This document shows positions 12,392-48,338 of a stretch of 64,000 nt of DNA, one piece after another. The translations under genes were made by a program, and so were the position numbers. How positions within the stretch are numbered: position 1 is the stretch's first letter; each line of letters starts with the position of its first letter. The stretch comes from an uncultured virus (IMG/VR IMGVR_UViG_3300050134_000033) (taxonomy: Duplodnaviria > Heunggongvirae > Uroviricota > Caudoviricetes), in the IMG/VR virus record IMGVR_UViG_3300050134_000033, one strand, 5' to 3'. The notes under the pieces were generated by a model that saw nothing but the letters and a program-made list of their open reading frames with translations, had not been told where the DNA came from and searched no databases.

Positions 12392-12751
12392 TCAAAGACT
12401 TAACCCTCGTCTATTTACTTCTATGAGCAACTGTTCATTGGTTGCTGACCGTAATGTGGGGGTGGGTCTTCTCGGTCGTTTATTTTTAACCTGTTCTTCC
12501 CATGTAGCCCATCGAACATTGCCTGCCTCATAGTGACCGTCATTATTTGGAAAGCGGTCAATGGTGTGTTTCGGGCTGGGGCGAGGACCCATCACTTTGA
12601 AAAATTCGTAGAAAGATGCAAATCGAAACTCGATGCCTCGTTCAGCGTAATATTCAGCTTTGACCCAATCGGGCTGGCATCGTCTCTTCGCCACTTTGTA
12701 GCAATCGTATTCGGTTCGATGTACGACTGTGGGGGCACGTTTCGGTCGCAT
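12392..12751 (-). CDS. HNH endonuclease
   Basis: YYAERGI...F...MGPRPS..HTIDR..NNDGHYEAGNVRWAT. Confidence 0.85.
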   Translation of the reverse strand: MRPKRAPTVVHRTEYDCYKVAKRRCQPDWVKAEYYAERGIEFRFASFYEFFKVMGPRPSPKHTIDRFPNNDGHYEAGNVRWATWEEQVKNKRPRRPTPTLRSATNEQLLIEVNRRGLSL

Positions 12752-14765: not shown

Positions 14766-16379
14766 CTATCGCGACGGCTCGTCTGGGTCTATCGGGTCGA
14801 TGTAACCCTCGTCGATCTCGGGATTGTCCCAACTGATCTTGCGGTTGGGGTCGATGATGTCCTCGGGACGCATGTTGAGCGGGTCGCCAGTCGGAGCGGG
14901 ATTAAAATCCCCTTCATGGGTCGCCCCGGTCTTCTTGTCGAAGAATCCTGTCGCCTGAACATCCTGCATGAACTTGGTGTAGCCCTCTTCGCTCAGCGGG
15001 AAATCTGGTGCCGAGAAAATGGGAGCCAAGATGTCAATGACCTGCTTGGGGATGACGCAAGCCACGCAATTCGGGTTTTTGCAGAGCCCGTCGTCGCCTA
15101 CATTGTCCAGACCCTCAGCCGCGAGAGAACTTGCTGCCAGAATGCCCGTAACGTGCCCCTGATCGTGCATGGTGCGCTTCTCAGCTTCGGCGTAGATCAG
15201 GAACAGCCCTTGCTTGAGCGGGTTCTTAATGATAGCTTCAACTAGATTCGCGTGCTCGTCTTGCGGTACTTCGACGCCGGGATCGGTGTAGCGATTGATG
15301 CACTCGGCCTTGCCCGTCTTGAGATCGGAGATAACCTGCTTCGATTGCTCGGAGGCACGGGAAACCTGATCCGCCAGCCGCACGTCGTATGGATCGCGGA
15401 GAACCTGAGAAACGTAGTTGCTGAGGTTGGCTACCAACAGCGGCTTGTCGCTCGGCCAGTTCGACTGATAGATCATGCGGAGAAGCGTGTCCATCTCGCC
15501 ATCGGTGAGCAGCGGCTCATGGCTGGGGTACTTCTCAGCCAGCCTGTCCAGATAGCCGTCGAAACCAAGCTGCTTCAGAATCTTTGCAGCCGTAGCCCGC
15601 AGCGTTGCCCGGTAGGTCAGAGCCTTTTCCAGCAGGTCCACTTCCATGAACACCTGCGGCGGCACATCCAGAAGGTCGGGATTGTTGTTTTGCTCGATGA
15701 TGTCGCCCGTATCCAGCAGCGTCCATTCGTCCACCAGCGGGGTCTCCGCGTAATCGTCGATCATGCCGAGGAGATCGGACTTCATGAGATCAAACAGGCG
15801 GGTAGCGATGTAGTTCGGCTTGCCTTCGCGGGTGAAGTAGTTGGGGCATTCCTGCTTGACCAACGCCCAGACTTCTTCCTTCGACCAGTCCTTGACGCTC
15901 TTGGGATTCTCTTTCGCATTGCCGTCGCAGATGCACAGAAGGTCGGCGTTCGGCTTAGCCTGCGTCGGCGTGTGAATGCGTTCGAGCCACTTGCGGATGG
16001 GGCACTTCAGATTAGGGTGCACCAGCACATTGTGAAAGTGGCGTCCTTCGCCGAGGATTTCCGCGTACTGCTCAAGGTCGGCGACCGTGGAACTGAACGT
16101 GCCGTCCGAGGAAATGTACTGCTTGCCCACGCGGGCATCACCTCCGAACATGCTCTTGCGGTTGATGATGAACGTGTTCTCGATCTTGTTGAAACGTGGG
16201 TCGTGGATCATGTTCCACGTTGGCCCAATGGTCTCCACGTAGCCCTTCGGCCCGAAAACCAGTTGGTCGATGATCTGACAATATTCGAATTCTTCGCGGT
16301 CTACTTCACCCTCTTCGATCTTGTAGATGCGCTTGCCCTCATCGAGCATTCCCAGAATGTTTCTGATCCTGTCTGCCAT
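14766..16379 (-). CDS. Large hypothetical protein
   Basis: 537-aa ORF packed between neighbouring genes. No family recognised. Confidence 0.75.
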   Translation of the reverse strand: MADRIRNILGMLDEGKRIYKIEEGEVDREEFEYCQIIDQLVFGPKGYVETIGPTWNMIHDPRFNKIENTFIINRKSMFGGDARVGKQYISSDGTFSSTVADLEQYAEILGEGRHFHNVLVHPNLKCPIRKWLERIHTPTQAKPNADLLCICDGNAKENPKSVKDWSKEEVWALVKQECPNYFTREGKPNYIATRLFDLMKSDLLGMIDDYAETPLVDEWTLLDTGDIIEQNNNPDLLDVPPQVFMEVDLLEKALTYRATLRATAAKILKQLGFDGYLDRLAEKYPSHEPLLTDGEMDTLLRMIYQSNWPSDKPLLVANLSNYVSQVLRDPYDVRLADQVSRASEQSKQVISDLKTGKAECINRYTDPGVEVPQDEHANLVEAIIKNPLKQGLFLIYAEAEKRTMHDQGHVTGILAASSLAAEGLDNVGDDGLCKNPNCVACVIPKQVIDILAPIFSAPDFPLSEEGYTKFMQDVQATGFFDKKTGATHEGDFNPAPTGDPLNMRPEDIIDPNRKISWDNPEIDEGYIDPIDPDEPSR

Positions 16380-22569: not shown

Positions 22570-23655
22570 TTTGTTACCTCACTTTGATCTAACCCGAGTT
22601 ATCGGGCAAAGTTATAATACATGAGATGCATAGTCAAAGAATTTAGATTCCATCTTTACAACACTTTACAGATCATCCTTGCGCCTGCTTGATTTCCTTC
22701 TGAATTTTCTTCACTTCTTCGTCGTGATCCGCGAGAAAGGTTTTCTTCTTCATACTCAGATGGATGAGATGAGATTTCTTCTCGTTGACGTACTCCTGTG
22801 GAAAGCAGATCGCCCGCCAGTCCGTCTGGTTGTACTGGTAGGGGCTGATCTGGAACTTATTCAAGGCGTCCAGCGTTTTCTTGCCGTGAGAACCTGACGA
22901 AGACCCGAGCGCCCGTCCGTTGCAACACAGGCTCCAGTCGAACATATCGTAGTTGCCCATGTAGTCGGGCTCGCCGCCGTGCCGCTGGGTCTCGGTCCAC
23001 TTGTAGGGAGCCTTGAATTCCGCGCACTTTTTAAGGTGGTTCTTGGCTGGCCAATATTCGCTGTCCTGTTGCTTCATGCCGCAGTTGGAACAAACCAGTT
23101 CGACCATCTCGACCTTAGTGCCGTCCGTCCGCTTGAACGTGAAGGACTTTTTAATGAGACGTGGGCGGTAGCTCATTTTGCACCGCCGACTTTCCAGCAC
23201 GACCCGGGCACCTTGGTGACTTCACCGTCTCGGGCGAGGGCGTAATCGCAGCCATCGGGACCGTGGGTCAGATCGGTTGTCACGTCGCCAGCGGTGAGGG
23301 GATGCTTGCGACCGCATTCGCGGGCTTGCTTTGATCCCAGCACCAAAAGCTTACTGTGCTGGGTGATCTCGTACAGACAGTCATCCGTTCCCAGCGTGGT
23401 AAGGGTTTTGCCGTCATTTGAGACGGGACAGGAACCCGCTGTGACGGTGATGATTCCCTCGGGGGTGATTTGGTACTGGCAGGCTTCGTCTGTGGTGCCG
23501 TAGACTGTGCCCAGCTTCGTGTCTTCGGGGCTGGGACGGGAGTCAATCTTGGCTCGGACACCGACCTCGCAGGCAGCCATGAGGACTACTACAAAAATCG
23601 CGGCGAGCAGTTTGGTGAGGTTCATGCTTCTATAATACCACAGCTTGAGGAAAAT

Positions 23656-23745: not shown

Positions 23746-23822
23746 TGGTGAGAGCGGTGGGGTACGATCCCACATGGTCATCGCTTAAAAGGCGAGTGCA
23801 TTACCCAGTCTGCCACGCTCCC
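23746..23822 (-). tRNA. tRNA-Lys(UUU), atypical T loop
   Basis: CTCGC-CT TTT AA-GCGAT; T loop ATCGTAC; CCA end. Confidence 0.85.
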
Positions 23823-23837
23823 ATTTGAAAAGAAGTT

Positions 23838-23918
23838 TGGGGGGCGTGGTGAGGGTCGAACTCACATTTTCAGTCCATTACAGTGATCGGGTTTAGAAGG
23901 CCCGTCCGCTACACGCCC
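23838..23918 (-). tRNA. D-armless tRNA-Arg(UCU)-like
   Basis: Acceptor GGGCGTG/CACGCCC, no D arm, CGGGC-CT TCT AA-ACCCG, 22-nt variable region, T arm and CCA. Confidence 0.7.
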
Positions 23919-24294
23919 ACACGAATTGTGGTTAACGTTTTCGTCTGGTGAAGAGGATCGGCGTAGCTTCGCAAATGAGCAGGAGGGCTCCTGCGGCGAA
24001 GGCTGGTAACAAGTTTTGAATCAGTGTAGTCATAGTTATTCTGCTTCGTGGATGACCTGCAACAGATATGCGAGGTACATCGCGGTACGTGTGATCTTTA
24101 GTGTAACCATTGCTGTTCGTCCGCTTTCATCCTGTCGAACCGCTGTTCGACGTACTGTCTAAAATCTTCTTTTTCTGCGTCATAGCTGGCGAATTTGTAC
24201 AGCCATATCAACGACGCACCGGGAATGACTACCCCGAGCCCGACAAGTAGAACGTTTTTTAACGTTCGATTCACAACTACTACTTTCTAAAACT

Positions 24295-24368
24295 TGGCTG
24301 GCACACAGGGATTCGAACCCCGATACCTTGCTCCAGAGGCAAGGGTCCTGCCGTTGAACGATGTGCCA
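24295..24368 (-). tRNA. tRNA-Gln(CUG)
   Basis: CTTGC-CT CTG GA-GCAAG; U1-A72; CCA. Confidence 0.95.
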
Positions 24369-24527
24369 ATCTTTACTTCTCGGTCACGCTCTTGACCCGC
24401 CATAGCGGGAACCGAGCTTCAAACTGTTTCAGGGCCGTTTCATCATCAACAGCGAACTCCGTGTACTCCGACTCTAAAGTCGAGTTCGGGAACGGCAACG
24501 CTATGATGAGAAACTCTTTCAACTCCA

Positions 24528-24752
24528 CTACGGCACCATGACTTCTTTCAGAATCACATCTTCACTGTTGCGAATCACCAACCGCTTCGGCACCAAATCA
24601 TCCTTGCGGCGGCAGTGAAGCTCGTTGGTGATGTACTTGTACAGCGCCACAGCCCGACGAAGGATGTCCACCTTGGTGCAACCCTTCTTATCTGCTAACT
24701 CTTGCAGGATGTCGTTCATCCTGTCGTTGAACTCTACCGTCAGCACTGGCAT
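24528..24752 (-). CDS. Ribbon-helix-helix (CopG-like) DNA-binding protein
   Basis: LTVEF...L.ELADKKG.TKVDILRRAVALY. Confidence 0.75.
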   Translation of the reverse strand: MPVLTVEFNDRMNDILQELADKKGCTKVDILRRAVALYKYITNELHCRRKDDLVPKRLVIRNSEDVILKEVMVP

Positions 24753-25056
24753 CTTTGTTCTCCGTGACCGACATGGCGATCTGTAATCTAATACCCTCTT
24801 CGCCAGTCAATTGAGCAAGAAATTCGTCGAGCACGCCGTCAAACTTTACGTCGAGCATGTGATCCTCCTAGAACCAGTCCGCTCCCGACTCCATCTTACC
24901 ACAAGCATCACAGCAACGGTCAAACGCACATGCTGTAACCCCGCCGCACTCAGGCCATAAAGCCTTCAACCTCGTGTATGTCCAAGCGTGCATGTCATGC
25001 TCGCACAGCCAGCGGCTCAACTTTTGCATCCACTTCGCTTTGAACGTCATAAAATA

Positions 25057-25134
25057 TGGTGACCCGAGTGAGATTCGAACTCACGACCTTCTCTTTAGGA
25101 GAGAGACGCTCTAGTCCAACTGAGCTACCGAGTC
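25057..25134 (-). tRNA. tRNA-Arg(CCU)
   Basis: TCTCT-CT CCT AA-AGAGA; CCA. Confidence 0.95.
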
Positions 25135-25762
25135 AAACTTTTCTGGTTACCCGATACGGGCAACCGCGAAACGTGACGATTGTCTGTCCGTCCCGATTCA
25201 ATTCCTCTTCGATCCGAGCCCGATCCTTCAGGATGAGGTCGGCTAATTCTTTCTCAGATGCCCTATCGTAGGCAGCGGCACCCCATGTTAATGCTTTCGA
25301 TAGTGCCTGAAGATCATTTACCATCAGGCAGTACCCTGTCCAAAAGCCCCGACCAGCCATCTATCAACTTCGGCACCACGCTGATAGCCACGAGAGCTAT
25401 GAAGTAACCCACCAAATCCTTTGCCGCCGTCAGATAGTGATGATGGGCCGCATCCCAGACCATGGCACAGACGCAAACAATCCCAATCGCGGCGAATCCA
25501 AGGGTCGCCATCAGCTTATTCAGGAAGCAAAACCAGCAGCCTCGGATATGCGGTACGCCTGCCATTATGCCTTCACAATCCACGCCCCAATTGCGGCGAT
25601 TCCTAAAACGATCTCCAGAGCCAGCATACCCCAGAGCTTCTTCGTGTCGGTCATCTGAGTGCTAATTGCCAGCACCAGACCTACACCCATGAGGGGAAGA
25701 CTGCGTAATCCGAACTCGACGCCGCCAATCTCCCTCGCCATAGTTATATCCTGTGCACGAAA

Positions 25763-25877
25763 TGTTCCCTGTCGGGCAACCTATTGTGCATCCAATCTCA
25801 TTCCCGGAATGTTCCCGTTCGGGAATATTTGGGTGTCACCGAACGGCGACATTCGTAAATGTTACCGTTCGGTGTCA
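25763..25877. repeat. Four imperfect 18-bp palindromes (consensus about TGTYMCCG-NN-CGGKRACA)
   Basis: Copies start at 25763, 25810, 25834 and 25860 in an intergenic gap. Confidence 0.6.
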
Positions 25878-25879
25878 TC

Positions 25880-26434
25880 CTACTTGTCTAACTCCACGTT
25901 CCAGTAGAGCCAGCCCCCATCAGCCCACTCCTTCCACTCGGGACGGAGCTTCTTGATGTGCAGCTTGAAGTTGTAACGCGGGTCGGTTGCCTTCGGCTCC
26001 ATGGGCTTCTTACGGAGCGTCATGCCAGACTCGGCCAACGTGTGGTTGTTCTTCATCTTGTTGCACTTGATGCAAGCCAAGACCAAGTTCAGCCACGTGG
26101 ACAATCCACCCTTCGAACGCGGGATCACGTGATCCAGAGTGTACTCGTGACTGTGCAAGAACTTGCCACAATACTGACACTCGCTGTTGTCACGCAGGGC
26201 GATGTTACGACGAGAGAACGGCACGCTCAACTTCAGCCGCTTGACGACGTAGTTCTTCGCCTTGATGACACGAGGCATGTTCATCTCGATGGACGGGGAG
26301 TGCAGGAAAACGTGCGGGTCTTCCTTCACGATTTCGGCACGGTCTTCCCAGTACATCTTGACGGCACGCTGCCAACTCACAAACCCGATGGGCCTGTTCG
26401 AGAGGTCAAGAACTAATGTGTCTGCCATTCCCAT
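25880..26434 (-). CDS. McrA-like HNH endonuclease
   Basis: SRRNIALRD...CQYCG...TLDHVIPRSKGG..TW.NLV.AC..CN..K. Confidence 0.9.
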   Translation of the reverse strand: MGMADTLVLDLSNRPIGFVSWQRAVKMYWEDRAEIVKEDPHVFLHSPSIEMNMPRVIKAKNYVVKRLKLSVPFSRRNIALRDNSECQYCGKFLHSHEYTLDHVIPRSKGGLSTWLNLVLACIKCNKMKNNHTLAESGMTLRKKPMEPKATDPRYNFKLHIKKLRPEWKEWADGGWLYWNVELDK

Positions 26435-26470
26435 AAATCACGTTGTCTCCCTTCTTATCAGTCTAAAAGA

Positions 26471-26547
26471 TGGTTTAGGGGGCGGGAGTCGAACCCGCCA
26501 GTCTTCCGCTTGCGCGGCTGCTCTGCCTAAGCTTGAGCTAACCCGAA
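26471..26547 (-). ncRNA. tRNA-like RNA with a GCAA tetraloop in place of the anticodon loop
   Basis: D arm GCTC/GAGC, CCGC-GCAA-GCGG, T arm GCGGG-TTCGACT-CCCGC, mismatched acceptor stem, CCA. Confidence 0.75.
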
Positions 26548-27292
26548 TCTGCGTTCCTTAATCTCTTGGATGTCTATGATCTGCGTCGGATACCACAGAT
26601 ACACCCTCATCCGTCCATCCGCTGGATCAATCTTGCCGTTATCGGCGGGGCCGGGGCACATGTGAGTCAGCCAGCGACCCTCAAACCCGCACACATCGCA
26701 TTTCTTCATACCCTTACGCCCTTCGCTTGATCCCTGAACTTCTGCCACTCGGCGTCACCCGTCTGCCAGCGCCAGATCATGTCCACGAAGGACCCACAGT
26801 ACGTGCAGTAGATTTCGACGGTGCCGTAGAGGGGGTCAAAGTTCCGACCTTCACGCTCTGCCGCGTCATCGCCGAGACATCGGGGGCACGCTTGCCGCAT
26901 TTTATGCTTCCACAGTAGTCGCGATATTGTCTGGGTGTACCAGCGCGTGGTTTCCACCCCCACCTTTCGGGCATTGCTCCATAGGAGCGGTCTGGGTTTC
27001 GCCATCCTCAAACATCCTTTTGCACTGCACGCACTGCATCTGCGGCACCACGGTCAACTGGTAGTCGCAAAACTCTTCCGTCTCCGCTCTACCGTTCTTT
27101 AGTTCATCCATCAATACTGTGTACCAGAGCGTGTCAGGGTTAAACCCCCTCGGATTCCGAACAGGGTTTCCATATCGGGTTGTTGGCGGATCGTGGCGAT
27201 AAGGTCCTCGAATAACGGTGCCTTTTTCTCCGTGCCGTCCGCCTTGATGCACTCGAACTCGATTTGTTTGCAGCATAAATTACCTCGAATCT

Positions 27293-27368
<76 letters not shown>

Positions 27369-27394
27369 ATCTCTACTTACAATACTCCAAAACT

Positions 27395-27470
27395 TGGTGA
27401 GCGGCAAGGGAATCGAACCCTCGTAGTCTCGGGTAAGAGCCGAGTGCATATCCAGTTCTGCCAACCGCCC
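27395..27470 (-). tRNA. tRNA-Lys(CUU), divergent second copy
   Basis: CTCGG-CT CTT AC-CCGAG; CCA. Confidence 0.9.
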
Positions 27471-27683
27471 AAACTTCAGTATTCATTAGTATGAAGCAAG
27501 CTGGAGCCTACACTGCCCGCGAGGGCGACGAGGAGTGTTTCTTCACTGTCCTCGAATGCGGCTGCACTTACCGAGTCGCTGTCGAAACCCTGTTCGATGC
27601 CGACATCCCTTGCCCGCTCCATGAGGAGCACCGTTTTACGGGTGACCCTCCACCGCCGAACAAACCACACGTTGAGACTTAAT

Positions 27684-27763
27684 TGGCTGTCGCCGCCCGA
27701 CTCTCACGGACATTACCCACTAGCGCGTGGGCGAGACGAACCCGCCTCCCGTTTCGCAACAGC
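27684..27763 (-). ncRNA. Highly divergent CCA-ended cloverleaf RNA
   Basis: CTGTTGC/GCGACAG-CCA, hairpins GAGGCG/CGTCTC and CCCAC/GTGGG, T-like arm GTCCG-TGAGAGT-CGGGC. Confidence 0.55.
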
Positions 27764-27769
27764 TTACTA

Positions 27770-27844
<75 letters not shown>

Positions 27845-27910
27845 ATGTCTAATAACCTTTCGCTTCGTACTTGAGCCTGCGTTTCGTGCTCGTATACGTC
27901 TTTCGTTTCG

Positions 27911-27986
27911 TGGCAGGAGCACTAGGATTCGAACCTAGAAGTCTCGTTTTGGAGACGAGCAGTTTGGCCGTTAAGCTTATGCTCCC
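27911..27986 (-). tRNA. tRNA-Trp(CCA)
   Basis: CTCGT-CT CCA AA-ACGAG; G73; CCA. Confidence 0.92.
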
Positions 27987-27997
27987 GCATCTAAAAT

Positions 27998-28083
27998 TGG
28001 CTGGGAAGGAAGGAGTCGAACCTTCAGTGCCCTAAGGCGGTGGATTCAGAATCCACTGGGGTTGCCAATTTTCCTACTTCCCA
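27998..28083 (-). tRNA. tRNA-Gln(CUG) with a long variable arm
   Basis: GTGGA-TT CTG AA-TCCAC; V arm GCC-TTAG-GGC. Confidence 0.88.
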
Positions 28084-28246
28084 ATCTTTCAACAAACTCA
28101 ATCTTCTCGCGGCATTCCTGAGCCCATCTCATGAACTCCTCGGAGAGGTCGATCATTCCCCGGGCTGCCGCTTCGAAAGCTGTGTCGAGGCACTGTTGCT
28201 CACACCGTGCGTTCCACTCGACGATCAGTTCTTTCGTCAACATATT

Positions 28247-28332
28247 TGGCTGGGACGGTAGGACTCGAACCTACAAGGGCTTTCGCCACACGATTAACAG
28301 TCGTGCACGCTACCATTACGCTCTACATCCCA
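28247..28332 (-). tRNA. tRNA-Asn(GUU) with a long variable arm
   Basis: CACGA-CT GTT AA-TCGTG; V arm GGC-GAAA-GCC. Confidence 0.88.
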
Positions 28333-28496
28333 AAACTTATGCTTTCGTAAAACCTGCCTTACAGAATCCGCAGGGACAACCCACTGCGTGAACCGTCGAG
28401 CCTTCCTTGGCTTGCTCCTGCTTCTTGCGTTCATGCCAGCCGAGGGCATTGCTCCGACTATCGACCCCTTCGTTTTGTTTCTGTTCTTCCATAAAC

Positions 28497-28583
28497 TGGA
28501 GCAAGTGACAGGACTCGAACCTGCATTCCCCGAAGGGCTGGGCGTTCGTAGCGCCCGTGGCGTCCATTTGCCGACACGCCCGC
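28497..28583 (-). tRNA. tRNA-Arg(ACG) with a long variable arm
   Basis: GGGCG-CT ACG AA-CGCCC; V arm CCC-TTCG-GGG. Confidence 0.85.
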
Positions 28584-28589
28584 AAAATT

Positions 28590-28666
28590 TGGTGATCCTA
28601 GTAGGATTCGAACCTACACTGATCCGCGTTCGAAGCGCAGGTGACTATCCAGTTGCCGATAGGACC
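28590..28666 (-). tRNA. tRNA-Arg(UCG)
   Basis: CTGCG-CT TCG AA-CGCGG. Confidence 0.9.
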
Positions 28667-28734
28667 AATCTAAAATCCGGAGGGCTTGAGGGATTTCACG
28701 TCGTTCCAGCCGTCGCTGTCTATCCTCTGCCCTT

Positions 28735-28828
28735 AGAACGTTTCGGCGTATGGCTGGCGGGATTCGAACCCGCATCTCCTCGCAATGAGGTGCTCTGCCA
28801 ATTGAGCTACAGCCGACCTCTACGTTCC
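28735..28828 (-). ncRNA. tRNA-like domain on an extended bulged stem, no CCA
   Basis: Canonical D and T arms, short CCTC-ATTGC-GAGG arm, acceptor GGCTG/CAGCC extended by GGAACGT/ACGTTCT. Confidence 0.65.
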
Positions 28829-28833
28829 AAACT

Positions 28834-28910
28834 TGGTGCACATGGCAGGATTCGAACCTGCGACCCCCGGTTTCGTAGACCGATGCTCTGTTCCGCTGAG
28901 CTACACGTGC
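28834..28910 (-). tRNA. tRNA-Arg(ACG)
   Basis: TCGGT-CT ACG AA-ACCGG; canonical. Confidence 0.95.
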
Positions 28911-29308
28911 AAAAATTTTAACCAGTACCAACCTTGCTGTTTCGCTGTTCGACGCCGATGACAGTTACTACATCGCACATCGCATTTTTCAATTTCCAGC
29001 TTTGCAGCGTGGTATTTCTTACAACAGATCAATCGTGAAATTATATCGTCTTTCTTGACACCATCACGATGATCGAAATCCAGAACTACGGGATCAGGTT
29101 CCCCGCAATCTACGCATGGATGATTCCTGAAATACGCCATCAGCCATTCGTACATCTCTCGCTTGTAACGTTCGCCATTCCTCTTTGCTTTAGCGATGTA
29201 CACCGCTTTGTTCTTAACGTAATCGCCGCGAGTAAACTCTCGTTGGCATTCCCGACAGTACGAGGCCGACGCGACCTCTTTTTCTTTCCCGCATTTGGGA
29301 CAGTTCAT
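28901..29308 (-). CDS. HNH-family endonuclease within the tRNA array
   Basis: PCVDCGE.DPVVLDFDH...KCDVRCSNCHRRRT. Confidence 0.8.
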   Translation of the reverse strand: MNCPKCGKEKEVASASYCRECQREFTRGDYVKNKAVYIAKAKRNGERYKREMYEWLMAYFRNHPCVDCGEPDPVVLDFDHRDGVKKDDIISRLICCKKYHAAKLEIEKCDVRCSNCHRRRTAKQQGWYWLKFLHV

Positions 29309-29355
29309 AGTGCCTCTATTATAGCACTACGAAGTCTGGATTACGCCTTCGTAAC

Positions 29356-29432
29356 TGGTAGTCCCGGTGGGATTCGAACCCACGACTTCCAGCTTCGGAG
29401 GCTGGCACTCTATTCCGCTGAGTTACGGGACT
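29356..29432 (-). tRNA. tRNA-Arg(CCG)
   Basis: CCAGC-CT CCG AA-GCTGG. Confidence 0.95.
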
Positions 29433-29720
29433 AAATTCTAATCAACCTCACGCGGTCGTAATGCGTTGTTGCTGACCTGCAAGCCACGCCTTTCGGCGCT
29501 TCACACGCTGGGCACTCATGATCCAGTGGGCTGCCAACAACCGTCGCTAAAGTTTTACCCTTTGAAGACGGAAGCTCGATGTGCACATCGGACCAATCTT
29601 GCCCCGAGGGGGCGACTAATCCTGTTCTCCGCTGCACGCTGGGCGAGCTTCCGTCCCCGCTGTTCAATATCTTGGTCCCTCCTTCAATCATCTCTGTCGT
29701 GCTCTCTCGCCTTAAAAACT

Positions 29721-29796
29721 TGGGGTGGACAGTGGGATTCGAACCCTCGACTACAGGAGCCACAATCCTGCGTTCTGCCGCTGAACTACGCCCACC
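29721..29796 (-). tRNA. tRNA-His(GUG) with encoded G-1
   Basis: CAGGA-TT GTG GC-TCCTG; G-1:C73. Confidence 0.95.
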
Positions 29797-29805
29797 ACAT
29801 CTAAT

Positions 29806-29885
29806 TGGGGTGACAGGTGGGAATTGAACCCACGAGACGACAGCTTCACAGGCTGCGGGTACATACCAACACTACCGACTGTCAC
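29806..29885 (-). tRNA. tRNA-His(GUG), divergent, no encoded G-1
   Basis: GCAGC-CT GTG AA-GCTGT; C73; the base at -1 is T. Confidence 0.85.
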
Positions 29886-30195
29886 AGTCTGCACATCCGG
29901 CAGATTCACGGATGCGACTTAATCTCTCGGCGTGGTGACGAATCTTGTGGCAATTTGCACACCGAACGTCACACTTCGCAATCTCTTCCAGCAGGCACTC
30001 GATAGTCATTAGCCCCTGCATCCCAACGCAAAACTTCTTTTCCCCTCTGACATGATCGAACTCAAGAACTCGAATGTCAGAATTTCCGCAATCAACGCAT
30101 GGATGGCTTTGAAGGTACTCCCTGATAAACGCTTCAAGCAACTCCCTGCGCCGTTGGTCAAAAGCTCGTCTGTCGGCCTTATCCTTGTACGGCAT
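29872..30195 (-). CDS. HNH-family endonuclease (paralogue of 28901..29308)
   Basis: PCVDCGNSDIRVLEFDH...KCDVRCANCHKIR. Confidence 0.8.
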   Translation of the reverse strand: MPYKDKADRRAFDQRRRELLEAFIREYLQSHPCVDCGNSDIRVLEFDHVRGEKKFCVGMQGLMTIECLLEEIAKCDVRCANCHKIRHHAERLSRIRESAGCADCDSR

Positions 30196-30213
30196 CCAGC
30201 AACCTTTCAAATT

Positions 30214-30301
30214 TGGCAGGGGTGGTGGGATTTGAACCCACAATGACCGAAGTCGGCGGTTTTGGAGACCGCTGGGCCGAACCGGGTTGCCCTTCACCCC
30301 T
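30214..30301 (-). tRNA. tRNA-Trp(CCA) with a long variable arm
   Basis: GCGGT-CT CCA AA-ACCGC; V arm GAC-TTCG-GTC. Confidence 0.88.
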
Positions 30302-30323
30302 ACAGAAAACCCACTAAAAATGC

Positions 30324-30348
30324 AAAAACCCACCAACTTTGGCGGGTC
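30324..30348 (-). terminator. Attenuator terminator before tRNA array 1
   Basis: GACCCGCCAA-AG-TTGGTGGGTT-TTT, 22 nt before the first tRNA. Confidence 0.85.
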
Positions 30349-30377
30349 TGTTTGATCTCGATTTGGAGTCTCTTGCT

Positions 30378-30509
30378 TTAGATTCCTACGACTCCAACTG
30401 AGCAGACCTGCCCACCGACCGACCAGCGATTATTCCGCTGGCGCTTACCGCCCACGCCCTGATGTTCTGGGGTCGCGGCGACGTTCGAGTTGGCTTTATT
30501 AAAGGTCAT
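30378..30509 (-). CDS. Leader peptide (43 aa) of tRNA array 1
   Basis: SD GAGGA; MTFNKANSNVAATPEHQGVGGKRQRNNRWSVGGQVCSVGVVGI. Its 3' part pairs with the terminator 5' arm. Confidence 0.8.
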   Translation of the reverse strand: MTFNKANSNVAATPEHQGVGGKRQRNNRWSVGGQVCSVGVVGI

Positions 30510-30527
30510 GTGTTCCTCAGCTTCTAT

Positions 30528-30559
30528 ATACTACCATGAAAGTCAGAGTTTTCGATAGG
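30528..30559 (-). promoter_or_regulatory. Phage promoter of tRNA array 1
   Basis: CCTATC-N20-TAGTAT, a member of the recurrent motif. Confidence 0.75.
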
Positions 30560-31293
30560 AAAATCAAAATTTATTTTTGCAATTGTTTTCGGGCGGCTAC
30601 CATTGCCTCGGTAGCGTCGTATTCATGGTAGTGTTCGGGACCCGGTTTGGTCAAGTAAATTCCTTTGAGCAGATATCGCCTCTCAAGCTGTTTGATGCTC
30701 ACAGGACCGCTGGCGTCGAACAGGGTGCCATCAGGTTTCTGGACAACGCAGTGGACGTATTCCGTGTACACAGTGCGGCTCAGACCGTTAACGAAGCGCA
30801 CAGGCCATCCTGTGAGGTCTTCGAGGGCTCGGGCGTATCGCCAGCAGTAGCCGAACAGCCATTGCCCGTTCGCTTTGGTCACCCTACCCATGGATTGTCT
30901 GCGTTTCGCCTCTGTGCGGGTCGAAAATCTTCTCGTCCTTGTAGAAGAAATGCTCGTCCATTTCGTGTAGTTCGAAGCTTCGGATAGCGCGGTACGCCGT
31001 CTGGAGAATCCACTCGTCCTTCATCTCGGGGTGAACTACGATTGGCGGCATGAACAAACTGATCGACTCGCCGCTCTGCACGTCTTTAAGGTTGCTGACC
31101 ATGATGCGAAAGCTGATGGGGCGGTATTCATCCATGAGTCCGCCGCCCGCGTACCAAGCGATATTGCCCGAGATCATCCACGTGACGTCCCGCTGGGTAT
31201 ACCGGATGTCGTTGAGGATGGCGTAGATTCGTTTGGCGAGGGGATGGTGCCAGAGGTAGCCTTCTTCCTCTGCAATGATGATGTTGGTCGGCA

Positions 31294-41627: not shown

Positions 41628-43783
41628 AACTTGGCTAACTTTTCGAGGTCGGCAACCTCGCACATCTCACGAGTGGGGATACGGAATCCACCCGGCGTGT
41701 CGATGGTGCCGTCCGCATTCGGTTCGATGCCGAACTTCTTCCAGTATGCGGCGTCGGGGAACGGAATCCAGTGAGCCATCATCTCGCGGATGATGCTGGT
41801 ATCCATCTGGGGCTTCTGTTCGTCGCTCATGAACGCTTTAACTGGAGCCCGACCGTCGCCATCTCGACGTAATTCTTGTCGGTCAGCCGACCCTCTTCTG
41901 CCCGGGCGGTGAGAGCCGCACGGCGGTACATGCTTTGGGCATTCTTGTACTCGATGCCCGAGTTGATTTCAGCCTTCCGCTTCTGCCACGCGGCAAAGCC
42001 TGTGTGATTCCGAGTGTTGTCTTCTTTCTTAGCCATGAGGCTCCTTATTCAATTGGGACGCTGGCGTGGAATAAAACGGCCAACACCATCAGCACTGCAT
42101 AGATTATGGTGAACGTTGCAAACAGCCACACCAGCCCGCCCACGAAGAACGATGCCGTCCAGCCGAGGACTGGGTGGTTGTGCATGAAGTTGCGGTACGA
42201 TTCGGATTCTCGATGGATCAAAGCCCCAACACCAGTGATGAATCCTGCTACGAACAGCATCACGAGAAAAAACAGAAAATCGATCATTGCCAATTCCCCC
42301 TACCCATCATTGCCAAAGGCGTTTCACTTGCCGCACTTGCAGTTGCAGCTTCCGCCGCCGTTCAAGCAAATGACCGCAAGAAGGGCGATGACCAACCATT
42401 CGAAATCGTGGTTGCTGAGATTGGGCAGGTTGAGTTGAATCCCGCCGAACCAGTGGGCCGAGGCTCGAATGCCGTAGTACAACAGGACGCCGACGACGAT
42501 AAACACGCCTGTCGTTATGATCCTGCGGATGGTTTTTTCAAAGCCGCTTTCGTAGCTCATGACAACCTCTTGACGAGAGTCTTCTCGCGTTCGGTCAACT
42601 CTCGGTTCAGAATCCGTTTCACTGCCTTGTCCAGACCAAAATATTCCACTCGGCCGTGGCGGGCGTCTTCCGAAGCATTCAGTATCCTGCGGATACTTTC
42701 CTCATTCGGGTGCTCCCGAAGTTCGTTGAGCAACCGCATCACTCTGTCCTGCGGCTTGCGTGCTACTTGGGCTTTTACCATTGAAACTCCTCATATTGCC
42801 CTCCAAAAGTCCCACGAATGCTTCATGCGGTGACGGTTCGGGAGGGTGGTCAATCTCCACACGTAATTGCGGAGACCGAAGAAACGATTTGGAACCAACC
42901 GATGCACCTGATCCAGCCTTAGCGGGATAGATGGCACGTGGTTGTCTTTCAGGAACTTTTCTTGGACGCCCCAATCCACATATATTTCGCGGATGTACTC
43001 TAACCTGCCGCGATAGGGCTCGGGAATCTCGGGACCCGGAATCCCGTTTTCGTAGAGGATTGTGCGGAACAAACTGCACGCTCCCCAAAAGCTGTGGTAG
43101 CTGTTGTGGTCGAACGAACCGTCTGGGTGTTGTGCTTGAATGTCTTCCAGCAGGTAGGGGATTGCCCGCATCCCAAGCTGATTCTTGATGTACTGGTAGC
43201 TAGGGTGGTCGGTCTTCGTCATGCTCAGGACAGCGGTGTCGTCCGTGTACTGATCCATGTGGGCGTTGTACAACTCCCGAGTGGTCAACTGATATGGTTT
43301 CTTCGGCTCGTCCGTGACGTTCCCCCAAAACCTTCCGTATTTTTCAAGCCATTCTGCGCTCGGGTCCATTTACTTCTCCATCCACGATCAGTATATCATA
43401 CCTGCTGGTAATCTTTGTCAGGCCAAGGCTTTCCGCAAGTCTTACAGCCCCGGCGTGACGGCTGTGCCAATGCCACATCCTCAGCTTTCACGATGTGCCA
43501 CGTCTGGATGCGGGCGGTCTCCTCGGTTTTGAACTCTTCCATGATGCACGAGCGGGCGATGCCGAGGTTGGCATTCTTGGTGATGAACCGATGCGGCACT
43601 TCGATGTCCACCGTCATCGTGACGCGGATTACTTTGCTCGGCCCGACGATCTTGGGCTGTTCATCGGTCAGGTAGCAGCGGTAGGGATCGAGCCCCACGT
43701 AGTGCTTCCACAACGCCATGAACCACTTCGGCACTTTTATTTCACCAATCATTATAGGATAATACCACGTGGCGGGGGAAAAG

Positions 43784-43877
43784 TGGTAGAGGGTACGGGA
43801 ATCGAACCCGTCCGAGTACGGTAATCAGCCGCGATTGCAGGTTTATAAGGCCCACCCGCACACCAATGCTACCCTCT
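43784..43877 (-). tRNA. Atypical tRNA-Ile(UAU) with a short D arm and long variable region
   Basis: Acceptor AGAGGGT/ACCCTCT-A-CCA; GTGGGC-CT TAT AA-ACCTGC. Confidence 0.8.
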
Positions 43878-43881
43878 AAAC

Positions 43882-43959
43882 TGGTGCCCGGGAGGAGACT
43901 CGAACTCCCAAAAATTCCCGTTTTAAGTGGGAAATGTCTGCCAGTTGCATCACCCGGGC
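43882..43959 (-). tRNA. tRNA-Leu(UAA) without the long variable arm
   Basis: TCCCA-CT TAA AA-CGGGA; Leu-like D arm; A73. Confidence 0.88.
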
Positions 43960-44358
43960 AAAATCCAATGAATCACGAAGTAGGCTACCAGCAAAAGTCC
44001 GCTGATAATCAGGATGCGGTGACGATACAACCGCAACCGAAGCGACTTGCTCGGTCGCCGTGTGGCGTACCTCAGAGCTTCTCGCTTCTCGTATGCCGCG
44101 TACTTGCGGTACTCCTCTTCGCTCTCCGCTGCTGTTGACGGCGGACACACACTGCAAAATATCTTCGAGTACGGAACAAACTTCCCCGTGCTCTCGTGTG
44201 TCTCCCAATCAACATGGATATGTGCTGTGGCGTCTTCGACGCATGGTTCGTAAGGCTTCATACCCTTATGATACTGCAATATTTGATCTTCTGCTTCTCA
44301 TATCCCTTGCGGGTCACGAGGCCAAACATCGGCACACATTAGGCACGTGAGTCAAATC

Positions 44359-44452
44359 TGGCGGTGAGCGGCAGAGTTGAACTGCCAATGCCCCATCTCT
44401 GAAGCATAGCCGTTTTCAAGACGGTCGGACTTGCCCATGTACCAAGCTCACC
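44359..44452 (-). tRNA. tRNA-Ser(UGA)
   Basis: CCGT-CT TGA AA-ACGG; long V arm; G73. Confidence 0.9.
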
Positions 44453-44943
44453 GAACTGGCGGTAGGAGGGAGAGTTGAACTCCCAATGCCCGTAGGCATA
44501 ACTGTTTTCGAGACAGTCGGACTTGCCAATGTGCCAACCCTACCAAACTTTTTCTTACGCAATCCCTTTTGCCAACGCCATTCGTTGTTATAAGCAACGT
44601 GAGCGTCTGTGCACGGCTTACAACGACAACCCAGAGTATACAGGCCGTGTGTTCCATGCCTGCCAGTCTTTGGCGTCCTTCGAGCCGCCTTGTTGCACTT
44701 ACGGTGCGAGTACGCAATGTTGTCTTCCGCCCAGAAAAGCTGCGGATCAACGTCGAGCCAATCCTTCTTGTGCTCAATGGAAAGCTCGCTGGCCTTCTCG
44801 ATCAGTTTGCCGCATTTGAAACAAACGTTGTCGCCTAGCTTTACCAGCAGTCCGAAAAACAGGCGTTGCTTGAGGCGGTTACTCGCTGTGCCGAACGGCA
44901 TTCCAAGTTGCTCGGCTTTCTTACAATTCGCATTAGTATCCAT
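44416..44943 (-). CDS. HNH-like endonuclease whose 3' end reads through tRNA-Ser genes
   Basis: CFKCG...SIEHKK.W...NIAYSHRKCN; HGT...Y..GCRC..C. Confidence 0.7.
   Translation of the reverse strand: MDTNANCKKAEQLGMPFGTASNRLKQRLFFGLLVKLGDNVCFKCGKLIEKASELSIEHKKDWLDVDPQLFWAEDNIAYSHRKCNKAARRTPKTGRHGTHGLYTLGCRCKPCTDAHVAYNNEWRWQKGLRKKKFGRVGTLASPTVSKTVMPTGIGSSTLPPTASSVSLVHGQVRPS
44457..44544 (-). tRNA. tRNA-Ser(CGA)
   Basis: ACTGT-CT CGA AA-ACAGT; long V arm. Confidence 0.9.
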
Positions 44944-44962
44944 GCGATTTAATACTCAAATT

Positions 44963-45054
44963 TGGCGGAGAGTAGAGGATTCGAACCTCTGATCCCGCTT
45001 GCGCGGGATACACGCTTTCCAAGCGTGCGGCATAAACCACTCGCCCAACTCTCC
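44963..45054 (-). tRNA. tRNA-Ser(GGA)
   Basis: CACGC-TT GGA AA-GCGTG; long V arm. Confidence 0.95.
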
Positions 45055-45055
45055 A

Positions 45056-45148
45056 TGGCGGAAGCGCCGAGATTCGAACTCGGACTCCCGAGGTAAACTC
45101 GGGAGGACAGGGTAGCAACCTGCTGCGATACCGTTACGCCACGCTTCC
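45056..45148 (-). tRNA. tRNA-Ser(GCU)
   Basis: GCAGG-TT GCT AC-CCTGT; long V arm. Confidence 0.92.
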
Positions 45149-45161
45149 GTACTTTATGTCC

Positions 45162-45194
45162 AAAAACACAAAAGCCGCCCAATTTCTGGCGGCT
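45162..45194 (-). terminator. Attenuator terminator before tRNA array 2
   Basis: AGCCGCC-AGAAATTG-GGCGGCT-TTTGTGTTTTT. Confidence 0.85.
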
Positions 45195-45228
45195 GCTCGG
45201 TGAATCTAATCTGCTTGTTTTCAGATAC

Positions 45229-45303
45229 TTACAAGCACACACCGATGCCGTCGCCCCGTGAGGAGCTACTAGACGATAACGATGATATGCTGATAGCGAT
45301 CAT
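45229..45303 (-). CDS. Ser-rich leader peptide (24 aa) of tRNA array 2
   Basis: MIAISISSLSSSSSSRGDGIGVCL, using all six Ser codons plus ATA and TTA. Confidence 0.85.
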   Translation of the reverse strand: MIAISISSLSSSSSSRGDGIGVCL

Positions 45304-45342
45304 TTTGTGTGTCCGGGTCACCTTCTTGCGGTGAGCCAACTT

Positions 45343-45825
45343 CTATATAATACCACGGAATTCCGAATTTTGGATAGGATTATCGAAATTTTTTGAAGCT
45401 AGGTAGTTTTCGATGTACCTCGCCGCCTCTCTGAGGGTTTCGGGATTGTCCATCGCCATGCCCAACATGGTGTTGCATCGGCTACAGAGGAGGCCACGAA
45501 TGCACTCCCCGCAAGACCAATAACCCGAACAGCATGAATGGTCATGGTCGATGCCCAGATACCTTCTGGATGGAGCTTGCCGACAGATAGCACAGACGCC
45601 CGCTTGATCCGCCATCCGAGCCGCATACTGTTCAGGAGTTATATGGTGCTTGTTGAGAACGAGGTACTTGCGAACGCGGTCGGGACGGTTCTTGATGAGA
45701 TGCTGGCACGCTTTGCAGTAAGTCTGAACACCAGATCGACGGTTCTTATGAGTATCGAACTTGGTTAAATCTTTCTCCCCACAGCTTGGACAACCCTTGA
45801 ATTCGTAGTTTTTCCATTGACCCAT
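45343..45825 (-). CDS. Endonuclease VII-family homing endonuclease
   Basis: CAIC...IDHDH...IRGLLCSRCN..LG...D. Confidence 0.85.
   Translation of the reverse strand: MGQWKNYEFKGCPSCGEKDLTKFDTHKNRRSGVQTYCKACQHLIKNRPDRVRKYLVLNKHHITPEQYAARMADQAGVCAICRQAPSRRYLGIDHDHSCCSGYWSCGECIRGLLCSRCNTMLGMAMDNPETLREAARYIENYLASKNFDNPIQNSEFRGII
45347..45378 (-). promoter_or_regulatory. Phage promoter of tRNA array 2
   Basis: CCTATC-N20-TATTAT. Confidence 0.75.
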
Positions 45826-48338
45826 TTTTTGACTACCCTATGTACAATACTGCGGTAGTCAAATTATTTGTGAAGAAATTTTTCGATGACGGCATGATGG
45901 CCTAGCAGCCACTCGATTCCCAGCCACCCCAAGATGCCCCACGTTGTCACCAATATCGCGACTGATCCCAAGATGAACCACCAACACGCCATCGTTGCAA
46001 CGTGACGAATGATGTTGATGATCGTCCCCGCTGGATCATCTATGAATGACCGAATGAAGTAGTACGAGAAGGTGTACTTGCTCACCCGTTCGACATGCTG
46101 ATTGAGCAGCTTAACGTGTTCGGTCAGTGCGGGAATGTTCATCAGGACCAGATCACGTTCTTTTCCATGAGCCCGCACTGCTCACAGTGGCGAACCTGAT
46201 TAGTCACGTAATGGGCGAAGCAGCCAGCTTTCGTCCATGGGTAGGCGACGGCGAACCTTTGTCCATCCACCCACGGTCCCCACGTGTGCACCCAATGCCA
46301 CTCGTGCATCTTCCTGCGAATGAGTTCAGCGGGGCGCATGAAGCCGTAGTAGGTCACCCACCACACGGCAAGACGAAGCGGTGTCTCTTTTGGCGTGCTG
46401 CGATTACTCGGGTGCGAAGGGCAGATGACTTGCTTTTCCGATCCGTCGCACATTCCCGTGTTGATGAGTTCGCACAAGCAATTACTCATTCGGTTCCTCC
46501 GTGCCGTCACTCAAGAAATCGATGGCTTCGCGCACGTTGCCGCCCTCGTTCTCGATACGCCAATACACTTCCTTGAGTCGTTGAGTGTTGGCGTCGAGCC
46601 AGTCGAACCTCTGACTGTCACTCATCATACTTTCAGTCCTCGGTACTTCTCGGGTCGCTGCTCTGGGTCGGGGTGATTCCAGTTTATGAGTTCTTCCCAC
46701 GTCTCGGGAGCGGGGATGCTCGGGTCATACTTGGTGTTGGCGCAACGGCAGATGGGACATTCCTCGACCCAAGGGTTGAGCCCGCGTTCGTGGCAGACGT
46801 GATCGCAGCGATTCATTAGAACATCGATTCTGACGGCGGTACGCCGCCCTTTGGGACTAAGATGATGTGAGCCGTCGTTCCCGCTTTGCCACGGGTCGGC
46901 AATTTGTCGGCGTGCCACAAATAGCGGCACGCAAAGTCGTGGCCCTCATTGTGTCCAAAACCGCAGTAAAAACAGCGGAGCGTAGCGCCCGACACGACAC
47001 AGGGCTCAGCCTCAATGTAGACGGCAAGCCAACAGCCGCCTATCTTCTCCTGTTTTTCGCGTATCACGGTATTCGGATGTGCGTTCATGGTTTTACTTCC
47101 TCGCAATCGTCAAGATAGACGTGCCGCCAGCCTTTCGGGGCGGTGTCTTTCATAAGCATGAACATGCGCTGACGTTCTCCAATCGGCTTCTTACATACCT
47201 CACAGACGGTGCCGAGGCTCTTCATTGACTCGGGGGTAGTGATGAACGCCCCGGGCTCCTCTTGAATTGCAAAGTCTATGGTTCGCAGGTCGGTGCTCAT
47301 AAAACGTGCCTGTACCCCACGGAGACGATTTTGTCGATGCCGTGCTCCACGTAGAAGTATACGGCCCAGACGGTGTGAAACTCTTTCGGGAATGCAATTG
47401 GTTCCCGCCGCCCGTGGAGAATAACAGTGTCATCCTTACGCGGAACAATTTCCATCTCCTCCACTGCGTAAGGCGTGTATTTGTATCCGACGAGGGCGTC
47501 TGCGTGCAGCCCTTGCGGTAGCGTAGATTGATCGACGAAGTGAATTTTCATAGTTTCCCCGATAACGCACTCAATTTGATCGCGGCAGAGATCATTTCGT
47601 ACAGAGCTCAACCCACCAAGATTACCCACACAAACCCAATCCGGGTGTGCGCCTGCCCCGTCTTTCGGTCGCCAAAACAAAGACCACAGTCGGCAACCCA
47701 GAACTGCCACTTACGCTTTGTACTTGTCTCCACTGTTCGCTCCGTGATTCGCGATATCTGAAAACTTGCAAGCAATGTTGAAATGCTCCCAATACTCTTT
47801 GCTCAGGCTGCACTGCTGACACTGCGTTAACCCGCTGCTGATTTTGGTGATGGGTGAGTGCCCCATGTTTTCCTGTTGCAACTGATCCAGCCGCTTGCCG
47901 TTGCCATCATGGATGATTCGGGTGTGCTTGCCCGCACAATGAACCTTACGGCAGTCTTGTAGGTTCTTGAAGATCGTGAGCGACCCCGTGTTGTACCAGC
48001 GGAGAACGACCTGCCCGTCGTCGAACTCAACGCCCTCAGCGACGAGGCCAGTGCCGCTGATCTTCGTGCTATCCTTGGTGCGATCTAATTGAAAATGTCT
48101 CATAGCATGGGGTGGAGCGTAAAGAATCCATCGATCAAGTGTAACGCACGGTCGTGGTTCTTGTCATCCAGTACATCGAAATCCAGCCGCGTGCGTCCCC
48201 ACCCGTCGTTGTAAATCCTGAATGCACAGTTTTCGCCGAATGCCCTCTTGATCGTGGGCATAACCGCCCTGACTGCGGCGTCGATCTTTTTCTTAACCCA
48301 CGGCTTTTCGTAGTTCGGTACGAAGTAGGCGACCATTC

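Follow-up and report, generated by a model that had tools for sequence, protein, structure and literature searches.

Leader-peptide attenuation, a textbook mechanism, has been described for the genes of amino-acid synthesis and of the charging of transfer RNAs (tRNAs). The ilvGMEDA leader carries Ile, Val and Leu codons and the thr leader Thr and Ile codons, both being multivalent attenuators of enterobacteria; the pheST attenuator has the pheM leader peptide, and its product is the aminoacyl-tRNA synthetase for one amino acid. T-boxes bind uncharged tRNA directly, without a ribosome, using one specifier codon and a conserved T-box sequence. The tRNA clusters of T4, T5 and jumbo phages are thought to supplement or replace host tRNAs. 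Here we present a computational analysis of 64,000 nucleotides (nt) of DNA from an uncultured peat virus of the Caudoviricetes (IMG/VR IMGVR_UViG_3300050134_000033; the whole stretch is hereafter referred to as the window), in which two tRNA arrays, both on the minus strand, are each headed by a promoter-like block, a small open reading frame (ORF) and an intrinsic terminator. The codons of each ORF match the tRNAs of its own array, these features are conserved in relatives, and a short, abundant leader RNA is present in a peat metatranscriptome. The best explanation, to which we give a probability of about 65%, is that a ribosome-mediated (leader-peptide) transcription attenuator heads each isotype-sorted block of phage tRNA genes. 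A literature search, outside which subscription journals largely lay, returned no published leader-peptide control of tRNA genes.

The first unit (leader 1, 45395–45160) precedes an array of tRNA genes for Ser and Leu and a tRNA-like gene with a UAU anticodon loop. Its promoter block lies at 45340–45395. The promoter placed here by the initial annotation was not recovered by a sigma-70 consensus scan of 42000–47000, which gave 0 promoter-like sites, but an extended −10 sequence, TGgTATTAT (45355–45347), stands in a block conserved between the two leaders: ~40 nt upstream are common with leader 2, and 45395–45340 (~55 nt) is nearly identical to the block at 30583–30521 that heads the second tRNA array. 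The 16-nt promoter core has 2 matches in the window, in these two blocks only, where 0.25 are expected; 3 of 100 shuffles had 2 matches. From this paralogous conservation, from orthologous conservation and from an RNA contig beginning at 45331, we infer a promoter with a predicted transcription start near 45340. The predicted fold of the 5′ untranslated region contains a hairpin (TCACC/GGTGA, 45318–45334), which in the related metagenome contig L047 reads TTACC/GGTAA, with one pair altered on both sides.

The leader ORF MIAISISSLSSSSSSRGDGIGVCL has 24 sense codons between an ATG at 45303 and a TAA at 45229, exactly as initially written. Codons 5–15 (45259–45291; AGC, ATA, TCA, TCG, TTA, TCG, TCT, AGT, AGC, TCC and TCA) form the control stretch, and our count agrees with the earlier one: nine Ser codons spanning all six kinds, plus TTA and ATA. 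An upstream TTG start was ruled out, since L047 has a TAA in that frame, five codons upstream of the ATG. The last eight codons, the stop codon and the spacer make up a long imperfect hairpin (45195–45255) with the apical helices TGCTTGT/ACAAGCA and TCGGTG/CACCGA; its basal part is able to extend onto the 5′ arm of the terminator and is a candidate antiterminator. The intrinsic terminator (45160–45194) was correctly placed ahead of the tRNA genes, with a stem of 7 pairs at 45194–45173, 6 of them G–C, followed by a T-run. The long hairpin is identical in L047, and the lowest base pair of the terminator stem is altered there on both sides. Blocking of the terminator by a ribosome on the stop codon was rejected, as this codon lies 38 nt before the 5′ arm, past the reach of the footprint.

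A second unit, absent from the initial annotation, is found at 30583–30302 on the same strand, with a near-identical promoter, an ORF, a terminator and then another array. Its promoter block (30521–30583) is paralogous to that of leader 1. Leader ORF 2 (MTFNKANSNVAATPEHQGVGGKRQRNNRWSVGGQVCSVGVVGI; 30378–30509) has 43 sense codons, a Shine–Dalgarno (SD) sequence (GAGGA) in front of its start and the residue run KRQRNNRW. A hairpin between the ORF and the terminator holds the stop codon of the ORF, and the terminator (30316–30349) has a stem of 10 pairs (30349–30326) and a T-run. The array behind it (23746–30301) begins with tRNA-Trp at 30301 and comprises Trp, two His, Arg (CCG, ACG, UCG and ACG), Asn, Gln, Trp, Asn, two Lys (CUU), Arg (CCU), Gln and Lys (UUU). 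The codon run of leader 2 thus corresponds to the amino acids that this array serves, and not to Ser, Leu or Ile.

We compared both leaders with a chance set of 705 ORFs of 20–60 codons, taken from all six frames of the window. Leader 1 has the longest Ser/Leu/Ile run in this set (12), and leader 2 the longest run of Trp, His, Arg, Asn, Gln and Lys (8). In a cross table of residues, leader 1 has 15 of the former class and 1 of the latter, and leader 2 has 4 and 15 (Fisher p = 2 × 10⁻⁵). When readable codons were scored from the array anticodons with simple wobble rules, the own array could read 12 of 23 codons in leader 1 (background 0.10, binomial p = 7 × 10⁻⁷) and 15 of 42 in leader 2 (background 0.22, p = 0.025). 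Coverage of all six Ser codons is, taken alone, only suggestive: nine draws under the Ser usage of the phage achieve it with a probability of 0.12.

Relatives were found with the NAD-dependent ligase encoded 6 kb upstream as an anchor. The ligases of G002 and G003 are 54–57% identical to that of the window and the ligase of L047 is 85% identical; in all three relatives a Ser/Ile/Leu array occupies the equivalent position and has a leader in front. Other routes gave no further relative: a distant search of the phage collection returned tRNA matches only, and a near search no relative by DNA; in viral contigs, neither the leader ORF nor the first tRNA had an exact-pattern match (0 each); a 192-amino-acid neighbouring protein used as a query gave 0 relatives; and alignment of the leader 2 peptide to viral contigs gave no match. 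Among the 15 of 18 metagenome loci scanned for tRNAs (L052, L060 and L061, at ≤1.9 kb, were left out), only L045, which is the window's own genome, and L047 contained any. Across the four related phages, the layout of ORF and terminator is present at 7 of 7 examinable array heads, an eighth array running off the end of the G002 contig, and all seven terminators have perfect G+C-rich stems followed by T-runs.

The conservation expected by the initial annotation holds for the ORF of leader 1 in all three relatives, and for the pairing, together with the long hairpin, as identity in L047. Leader 1 of L047 is the window ORF less one Ser codon, removed by an in-frame 3-nt deletion; apart from this codon the two are identical from 14 nt before the ATG to the spacer, the DNA upstream of the leader diverges, and the first tRNA has compensatory stem changes. 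The corresponding leaders of G003 (MKNMISISSSSSSSSTSGWDGMGVCA) and G002 (MKNTLSISSSSTSSSSWTGGGVVNV) retain Ser while its codons switch between the TCN and AGY boxes, and the G002 copy contains TTA, ATA and all six Ser codons. The second array of G003 (Trp, His, Arg, Asn, Met, Gln and Lys) has the leader MTMKQTNSMRQWQKRNHRRATGLCSVMRDIKW, with the same residue set as leader 2 of the window in a different order (RQWQKRNHRR versus KRQRNNRW). G002 has a third type of block (two Tyr, Leu UAG, CAG, CAA and GAG, Pro, Met and Phe), and its leader, MNRLSHNTTLGLSLYYLLSSGLVLSDRPS, contains both Tyr codons and eight Leu codons drawn from five of the six kinds; the one missing is TTA, the tRNA for which is located in the other block. 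A database peptide, P0002, is 77% identical to leader 2, keeping both ends and exchanging the middle for other His, Lys, Arg, Gln and Asn residues, with 18 of 42 residues from the set, compared with 15 of 42 in leader 2.

Own-array readable codons number 11 of 22 in leader 1 of L047, 14 of 25 in leader 1 of G003, 19 of 31 in leader 2 of G003 (p = 1.5 × 10⁻⁵), 11 of 24 in leader 1 of G002 and 10 of 28 in the G002 leader of the third block, hereafter G002 leader 3 (p = 0.034). The agreement between leader codons and downstream anticodons that the initial annotation had proposed to look for in related phages was thus found throughout: all 7 leaders are enriched in codons of their own array (p between 0.034 and 2 × 10⁻⁸), and 0 of 7 in those of the other array (p ≥ 0.2). 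ATA, with a background of 0.0044 of codons, occurs in all four copies of leader 1 and in 0 of the 3 other leaders, and TTA in three of the four copies.

Run X16 of the peat metatranscriptome contains a contig over 45193–45331 at a depth of 199, the neighbouring contigs of that run having depths of 6.6–8.4. Its ends lie ~9 nt past the predicted start and at the foot of the terminator. The insert is bounded on both sides by sequence that we take to be Illumina adapter, and it therefore represents a discrete molecule of ~139 nt. It comes from a strain variant, with codon 3 changed from GCT to GTT and one A fewer before the ATG. The contig is consistent with promoter activity and with a short leader RNA present in abundance. 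Runs X15, X17 and X18 gave only pieces of an HNH endonuclease ORF within the array, or short pieces, 90–95% identical, over tRNAs, the latter probably from other organisms. No RNA contig bridging leader and tRNA was present in runs X15–X18, whose uncovered parts say nothing.

Core SD sequences precede 26 of 86 long ORFs on this strand, the value for random positions being 0.13. Many genes of the window have a −10-like box (TATAAT, TACAAT, TAGAAT or TATTAT) 6–9 nt before the ATG, for example at the starts 55330, 53289, 31294, 29308, 12751, 8062 and 43752, and initiation in this phage appears to be mostly leaderless or SD-independent. In G002 and G003 the ATG of leader 1 lies ~3 nt past the predicted transcription start, as in many leaderless-looking genes here. 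The evolutionary pattern of the leaders (switches between TCN and AGY, an in-frame deletion and reshuffling within the same residue set) fits translation of the ORFs.

The initial annotation named three helices as an antiterminator. The complementarities exist, but in the minimum-energy fold of leader 1 two of the three, TGCTTGT/ACAAGCA and TCGGTG/CACCGA, form alongside the terminator; only the basal extension (GGCG.C.GC onto GC.G.CGCC) competes with it. For equilibrium folding, a ribosome footprint was put at each codon and the probability of the terminator, P(terminator), was calculated. Leader 1 of G003 and that of G002 give a clean predicted switch, with P(terminator) at 0.00–0.5 for a ribosome stalled in the Ser run and ~1 at later positions. 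The free-energy advantage of the terminator between a late and a stalled ribosome falls from 11.9 to 3.0 kcal/mol in L047, from 11.4 to −1.6 kcal/mol in G003, from 12.9 to 0.2 kcal/mol in G002 and from 9.5 to 6.3 kcal/mol in the window. In transcripts ending before the 3′ arm and free of ribosomes, the 5′ arm of the terminator is predicted to pair upstream in 6 of 6 folded leaders (0.71–0.99). In the same predictions, a ribosome over the last third of the ORF frees this arm in five of the six (0.08–0.52), and in leader 2 of G003 it stays paired at ≥0.72.

A MAFFT alignment of the four copies of leader 1 split the terminator arm with gaps, and the arms were instead compared by eye and by duplex energies. 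Complementarity between the last 13 codons of the ORF and the terminator 5′ arm, tested by duplex energies, reaches p values of 0.016–0.089 at the five independent leaders other than leader 1 of the window; combined over six lineages, p is 4 × 10⁻⁴ with random windows and 3 × 10⁻³ with shuffles. The altered arm of G003, GCCGTCC, is mirrored by GGACGGC within its ORF. An antiterminator is thus plausible in these models for the family, and poor in the window's own copy.

Two further features of the predicted folds concern leader 1. An A/C-rich stretch before the ATG (45306–45319) pairs with the U-rich tail of the terminator (45160–45173, minus strand) in the full-length fold, and both strands of this pairing are unchanged in L047; it might hide the start codon in terminated transcripts. 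A small hairpin located where the Ser run ends, immediately ahead of the antiterminator strand, appears in the predicted folds of the window (45259–45272), G003 and G002 (L008 ~16295–16313 and L007 ~12448–12464), the L047 ORF being identical to that of the window there. This hairpin may be a polymerase pause site.

The core idea of the initial annotation, a codon-matched and presumably translated leader coupled to a terminator, is strongly supported by the second unit, by the counterparts in relatives and by the short leader RNA. In the mechanism that we propose, the phage promoter would start a short transcript, on which ribosomes would translate the small ORF with its central run of codons for the downstream tRNAs. 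With fast decoding, a ribosome would reach the last third of the ORF and strip it from the terminator 5′ arm; the terminator hairpin would then form and transcription would end ahead of the tRNAs. With a scarce tRNA, the slow codon would stall the ribosome upstream, the 3′ third of the ORF would stay paired with the 5′ arm and RNA polymerase would read through into the tRNA block. The build-up of phage tRNAs would shut the unit off again, as negative feedback. The scarcity might come from an anticodon nuclease or starvation, as the initial annotation proposes, or from host shut-off or codon mismatch. Translation of the ORF, the effect of stalling on termination and the cause of tRNA scarcity are parts that we infer, and the effector step is the least secure of the whole.

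Several results weigh against the attenuator reading. Folding with the ribosome footprint masked, as the initial annotation had suggested, gives the expected switch in G003 and G002 but not at leader 1 of the window, where P(terminator) is ≥0.97 at every ribosome position; here the stalled state still favours the terminator by 6.3 kcal/mol, just ~3 kcal/mol below the late state, and the complementarity of the competing helix is not above chance (p = 0.24 with random windows and 0.57 with shuffles). Leader 2 of the window, leader 2 of G003 and leader 3 of G002 show little or no equilibrium switch. In the codon match, 11 of the 23 codons of leader 1 are unmatched, three ATC among them; leader 2 ranks only 91st of 705 by overall set fraction, its signal being a cluster, and it lacks AGG, the codon read by tRNA-Arg(CCU); leader 3 of G002 has six Ser codons and an array without a Ser tRNA; and the wobble rule had UAU reading ATG, the exclusion of which lowers leader 1 of G003 to 12 of 25. 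The X16 contig halts at 45193, at the foot of the terminator rather than in the T-run; as a single contig from a single run, it cannot establish transcript ends or regulation. The ATG of leader 1 has no SD sequence, an objection that the scarcity of SD sequences and the leaderless-looking genes of this phage make weak.

Three other explanations were weighed with these points in hand. The sensor could be the same and the effector different, with stalling acting through Rho (lost coupling of transcription and translation), RNase processing or stability, or pause release, and with the hairpin and T-run as a fixed partial terminator. A strong codon match and ORF conservation beside weak antiterminator support at 4 of 7 leaders would suit this, as would an abundant RNA that ends before the terminator stem, at what could be a processing site; we nevertheless consider it unlikely, given the clean predicted switch in two copies of leader 1, the arm change in G003 that is mirrored in its ORF, and a family-wide complementarity above chance. 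It is less likely again that nothing is regulated, the hairpin being a constitutive or leaky terminator or a 5′ processing or stability element, and the small ORFs untranslated or irrelevant, with an incidental composition. The folding of leader 1 to termination in all states and its missing SD sequence point that way, and the number of terminators in a scan of the leader 1 region (5, against 5.4 in shuffles) is not above chance, but this explanation cannot account for two codon sets, each fitting only the array behind it, for a match at 7 of 7 array heads that includes the Leu/Tyr leader, or for the retention of Ser across switches between TCN and AGY, the in-frame deletion in L047 and the same-set replacement in P0002. 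Lastly, the function might lie in the terminated leader itself, acting in trans either as a stable small RNA or through a short peptide that is Ser-rich or basic, its position before tRNAs being secondary. In one metatranscriptome the leader RNA greatly exceeds the flanking sequence in abundance, and the attenuator RNA rnTrpL is reported to act in trans (PMC6614838), but across the leaders it is the composition and not the order of the peptide that is conserved, there is no known target, and a trans role would add to attenuation rather than replace it; we regard this as very improbable.

The tRNA genes of the first block follow terminator 1 in the order Ser(GCU) (45056–45148), Ser(GGA) (44963–45054), an HNH ORF, Ser(CGA) (44457–44544), Ser(UGA) (44359–44452), a small ORF, Leu(UAA) (43882–43959) and the UAU element (43787–43878), all on the minus strand. 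ARAGORN called the four Ser genes and the Leu gene of the initial annotation; the Ile(UAU) gene listed with them was not called, lowered thresholds included, and on the Rfam tRNA-Sec model it reaches 31.6 bits, short of the gathering score (47). In two relatives the counterpart was called tRNA-Ile(tat). In the window and in L047 (9605–9699) the element is 92–95 nt long and its long extra arm pairs poorly, and in G003 it is 79 nt long; its identity is uncertain, the amino acid carried not being evident from its sequence.

An endonuclease VII-like gene (phrog_2633, 1 × 10⁻³¹) lies just upstream of leader 1 at 45343–45825, and an HNH endonuclease gene (phrog_23251, 4 × 10⁻²⁷) within the array at 44416–44943, both on the minus strand; the HNH frame continues through tRNA-Ser(CGA) into tRNA-Ser(UGA). 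In G003 an ORF of this endonuclease sort sits between the terminator of leader 2 and the first tRNA. These genes are probably homing endonucleases that shuffle tRNA blocks. A promoter-like site, GTGGTATTAT, stands directly after each tRNA array and before the next gene (43759–43769 and 23632–23642, minus strand); its 11-mer occurs 4 times with ≤1 mismatch, against 0.53 expected. G001, from the same phage, ends at window position 24493 and contains neither leader, and its other 61 kb has no further tRNA array and no promoter copy. It does carry, outside the window (L005 5163–5237), a lone CUA-anticodon tRNA, 'Pyl' according to ARAGORN and amber-suppressor-like.

If the attenuator reading is true, it would explain how tRNA-rich phages dose dozens of tRNA genes and would provide a concrete sensor for host tRNA depletion, which is topical in phage defence and counter-defence; it would also supply small natural elements from which the decoding speed of chosen codons can be read. 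The recurrence of the design, with different codon sets within a single genome and again in diverged relatives, makes it directly testable. More tentatively, and at odds a shade below even, large phages may use a modular 'tRNA on demand' circuit, in which each isotype block would be gated by its own multivalent codon sensor, failing host tRNAs (through codon mismatch, host shut-off or anticodon-nuclease defence) would be read in real time and only the matching replacements would be transcribed, with built-in negative feedback. If general, this would make leader sequences a readable record of the tRNAs that limit each phage in its host.

Among phages, T4, T5 and the Xanthomonas phage XacN1 resemble the window phage in having clusters of tRNA genes interspersed with homing-endonuclease-like ORFs. 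XacN1 is 44% identical to the window phage in one protein; its tRNAs are interspersed with ORFs, whereas those of the window phage are sorted into blocks. In XacN1 (AP018399.1), a 13-codon ORF, MNKPYYKRYYAKA (L064 1929–1970), has Lys or Tyr at 7 of 12 residues and lies just upstream of tRNA-Lys, Lys and Tyr, with no canonical terminator seen at that site, and a 41-codon ORF (L064 17605–17730) with 18 of 40 residues Phe, Asp, Ile or Ala precedes tRNA-Phe, Asp and Ile. These small ORFs may represent the same idea in a cultured phage. XacN1 also has two CUA-anticodon tRNA genes.

Among attenuators, the ilvGMEDA and thr leaders have in common with the units described here a promoter-proximal short ORF, a run of control codons for more than one amino acid, an intrinsic terminator ahead of the first structural gene and, as a prediction for the units here, a 3′ part of the ORF that pairs alternatively with the terminator 5′ arm. 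They regulate biosynthetic enzymes, whereas here the regulated genes are tRNAs, so that the signal that can be corrected is scarcity of tRNA and not of amino acid; in addition, the units here are phage-borne, one per isotype block, with a common phage promoter. The pheST attenuator is similar to the proposed mechanism in that its leader peptide, pheM, responds to the decoding of certain codons and governs a gene whose product serves to decode them, but that product is one synthetase, whereas here one leader precedes as many as 16 tRNA genes, for six amino acids. With T-boxes the likeness would be a decision between terminator and antiterminator that reports the state of a specific tRNA through a leader codon; the leaders here are instead ORFs with 8–12 consecutive control codons. 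A T-box or a known Rfam leader was rejected for this locus: in an Rfam search of 43000–46000, neither a T-box nor any leader family (Trp, His, Leu or Thr) was among the 8 matches at E ≤ 1, and the downstream genes are tRNAs. What appears to differ in kind from known attenuators is that tRNA genes themselves are controlled, in a virus, with one sensor per block.

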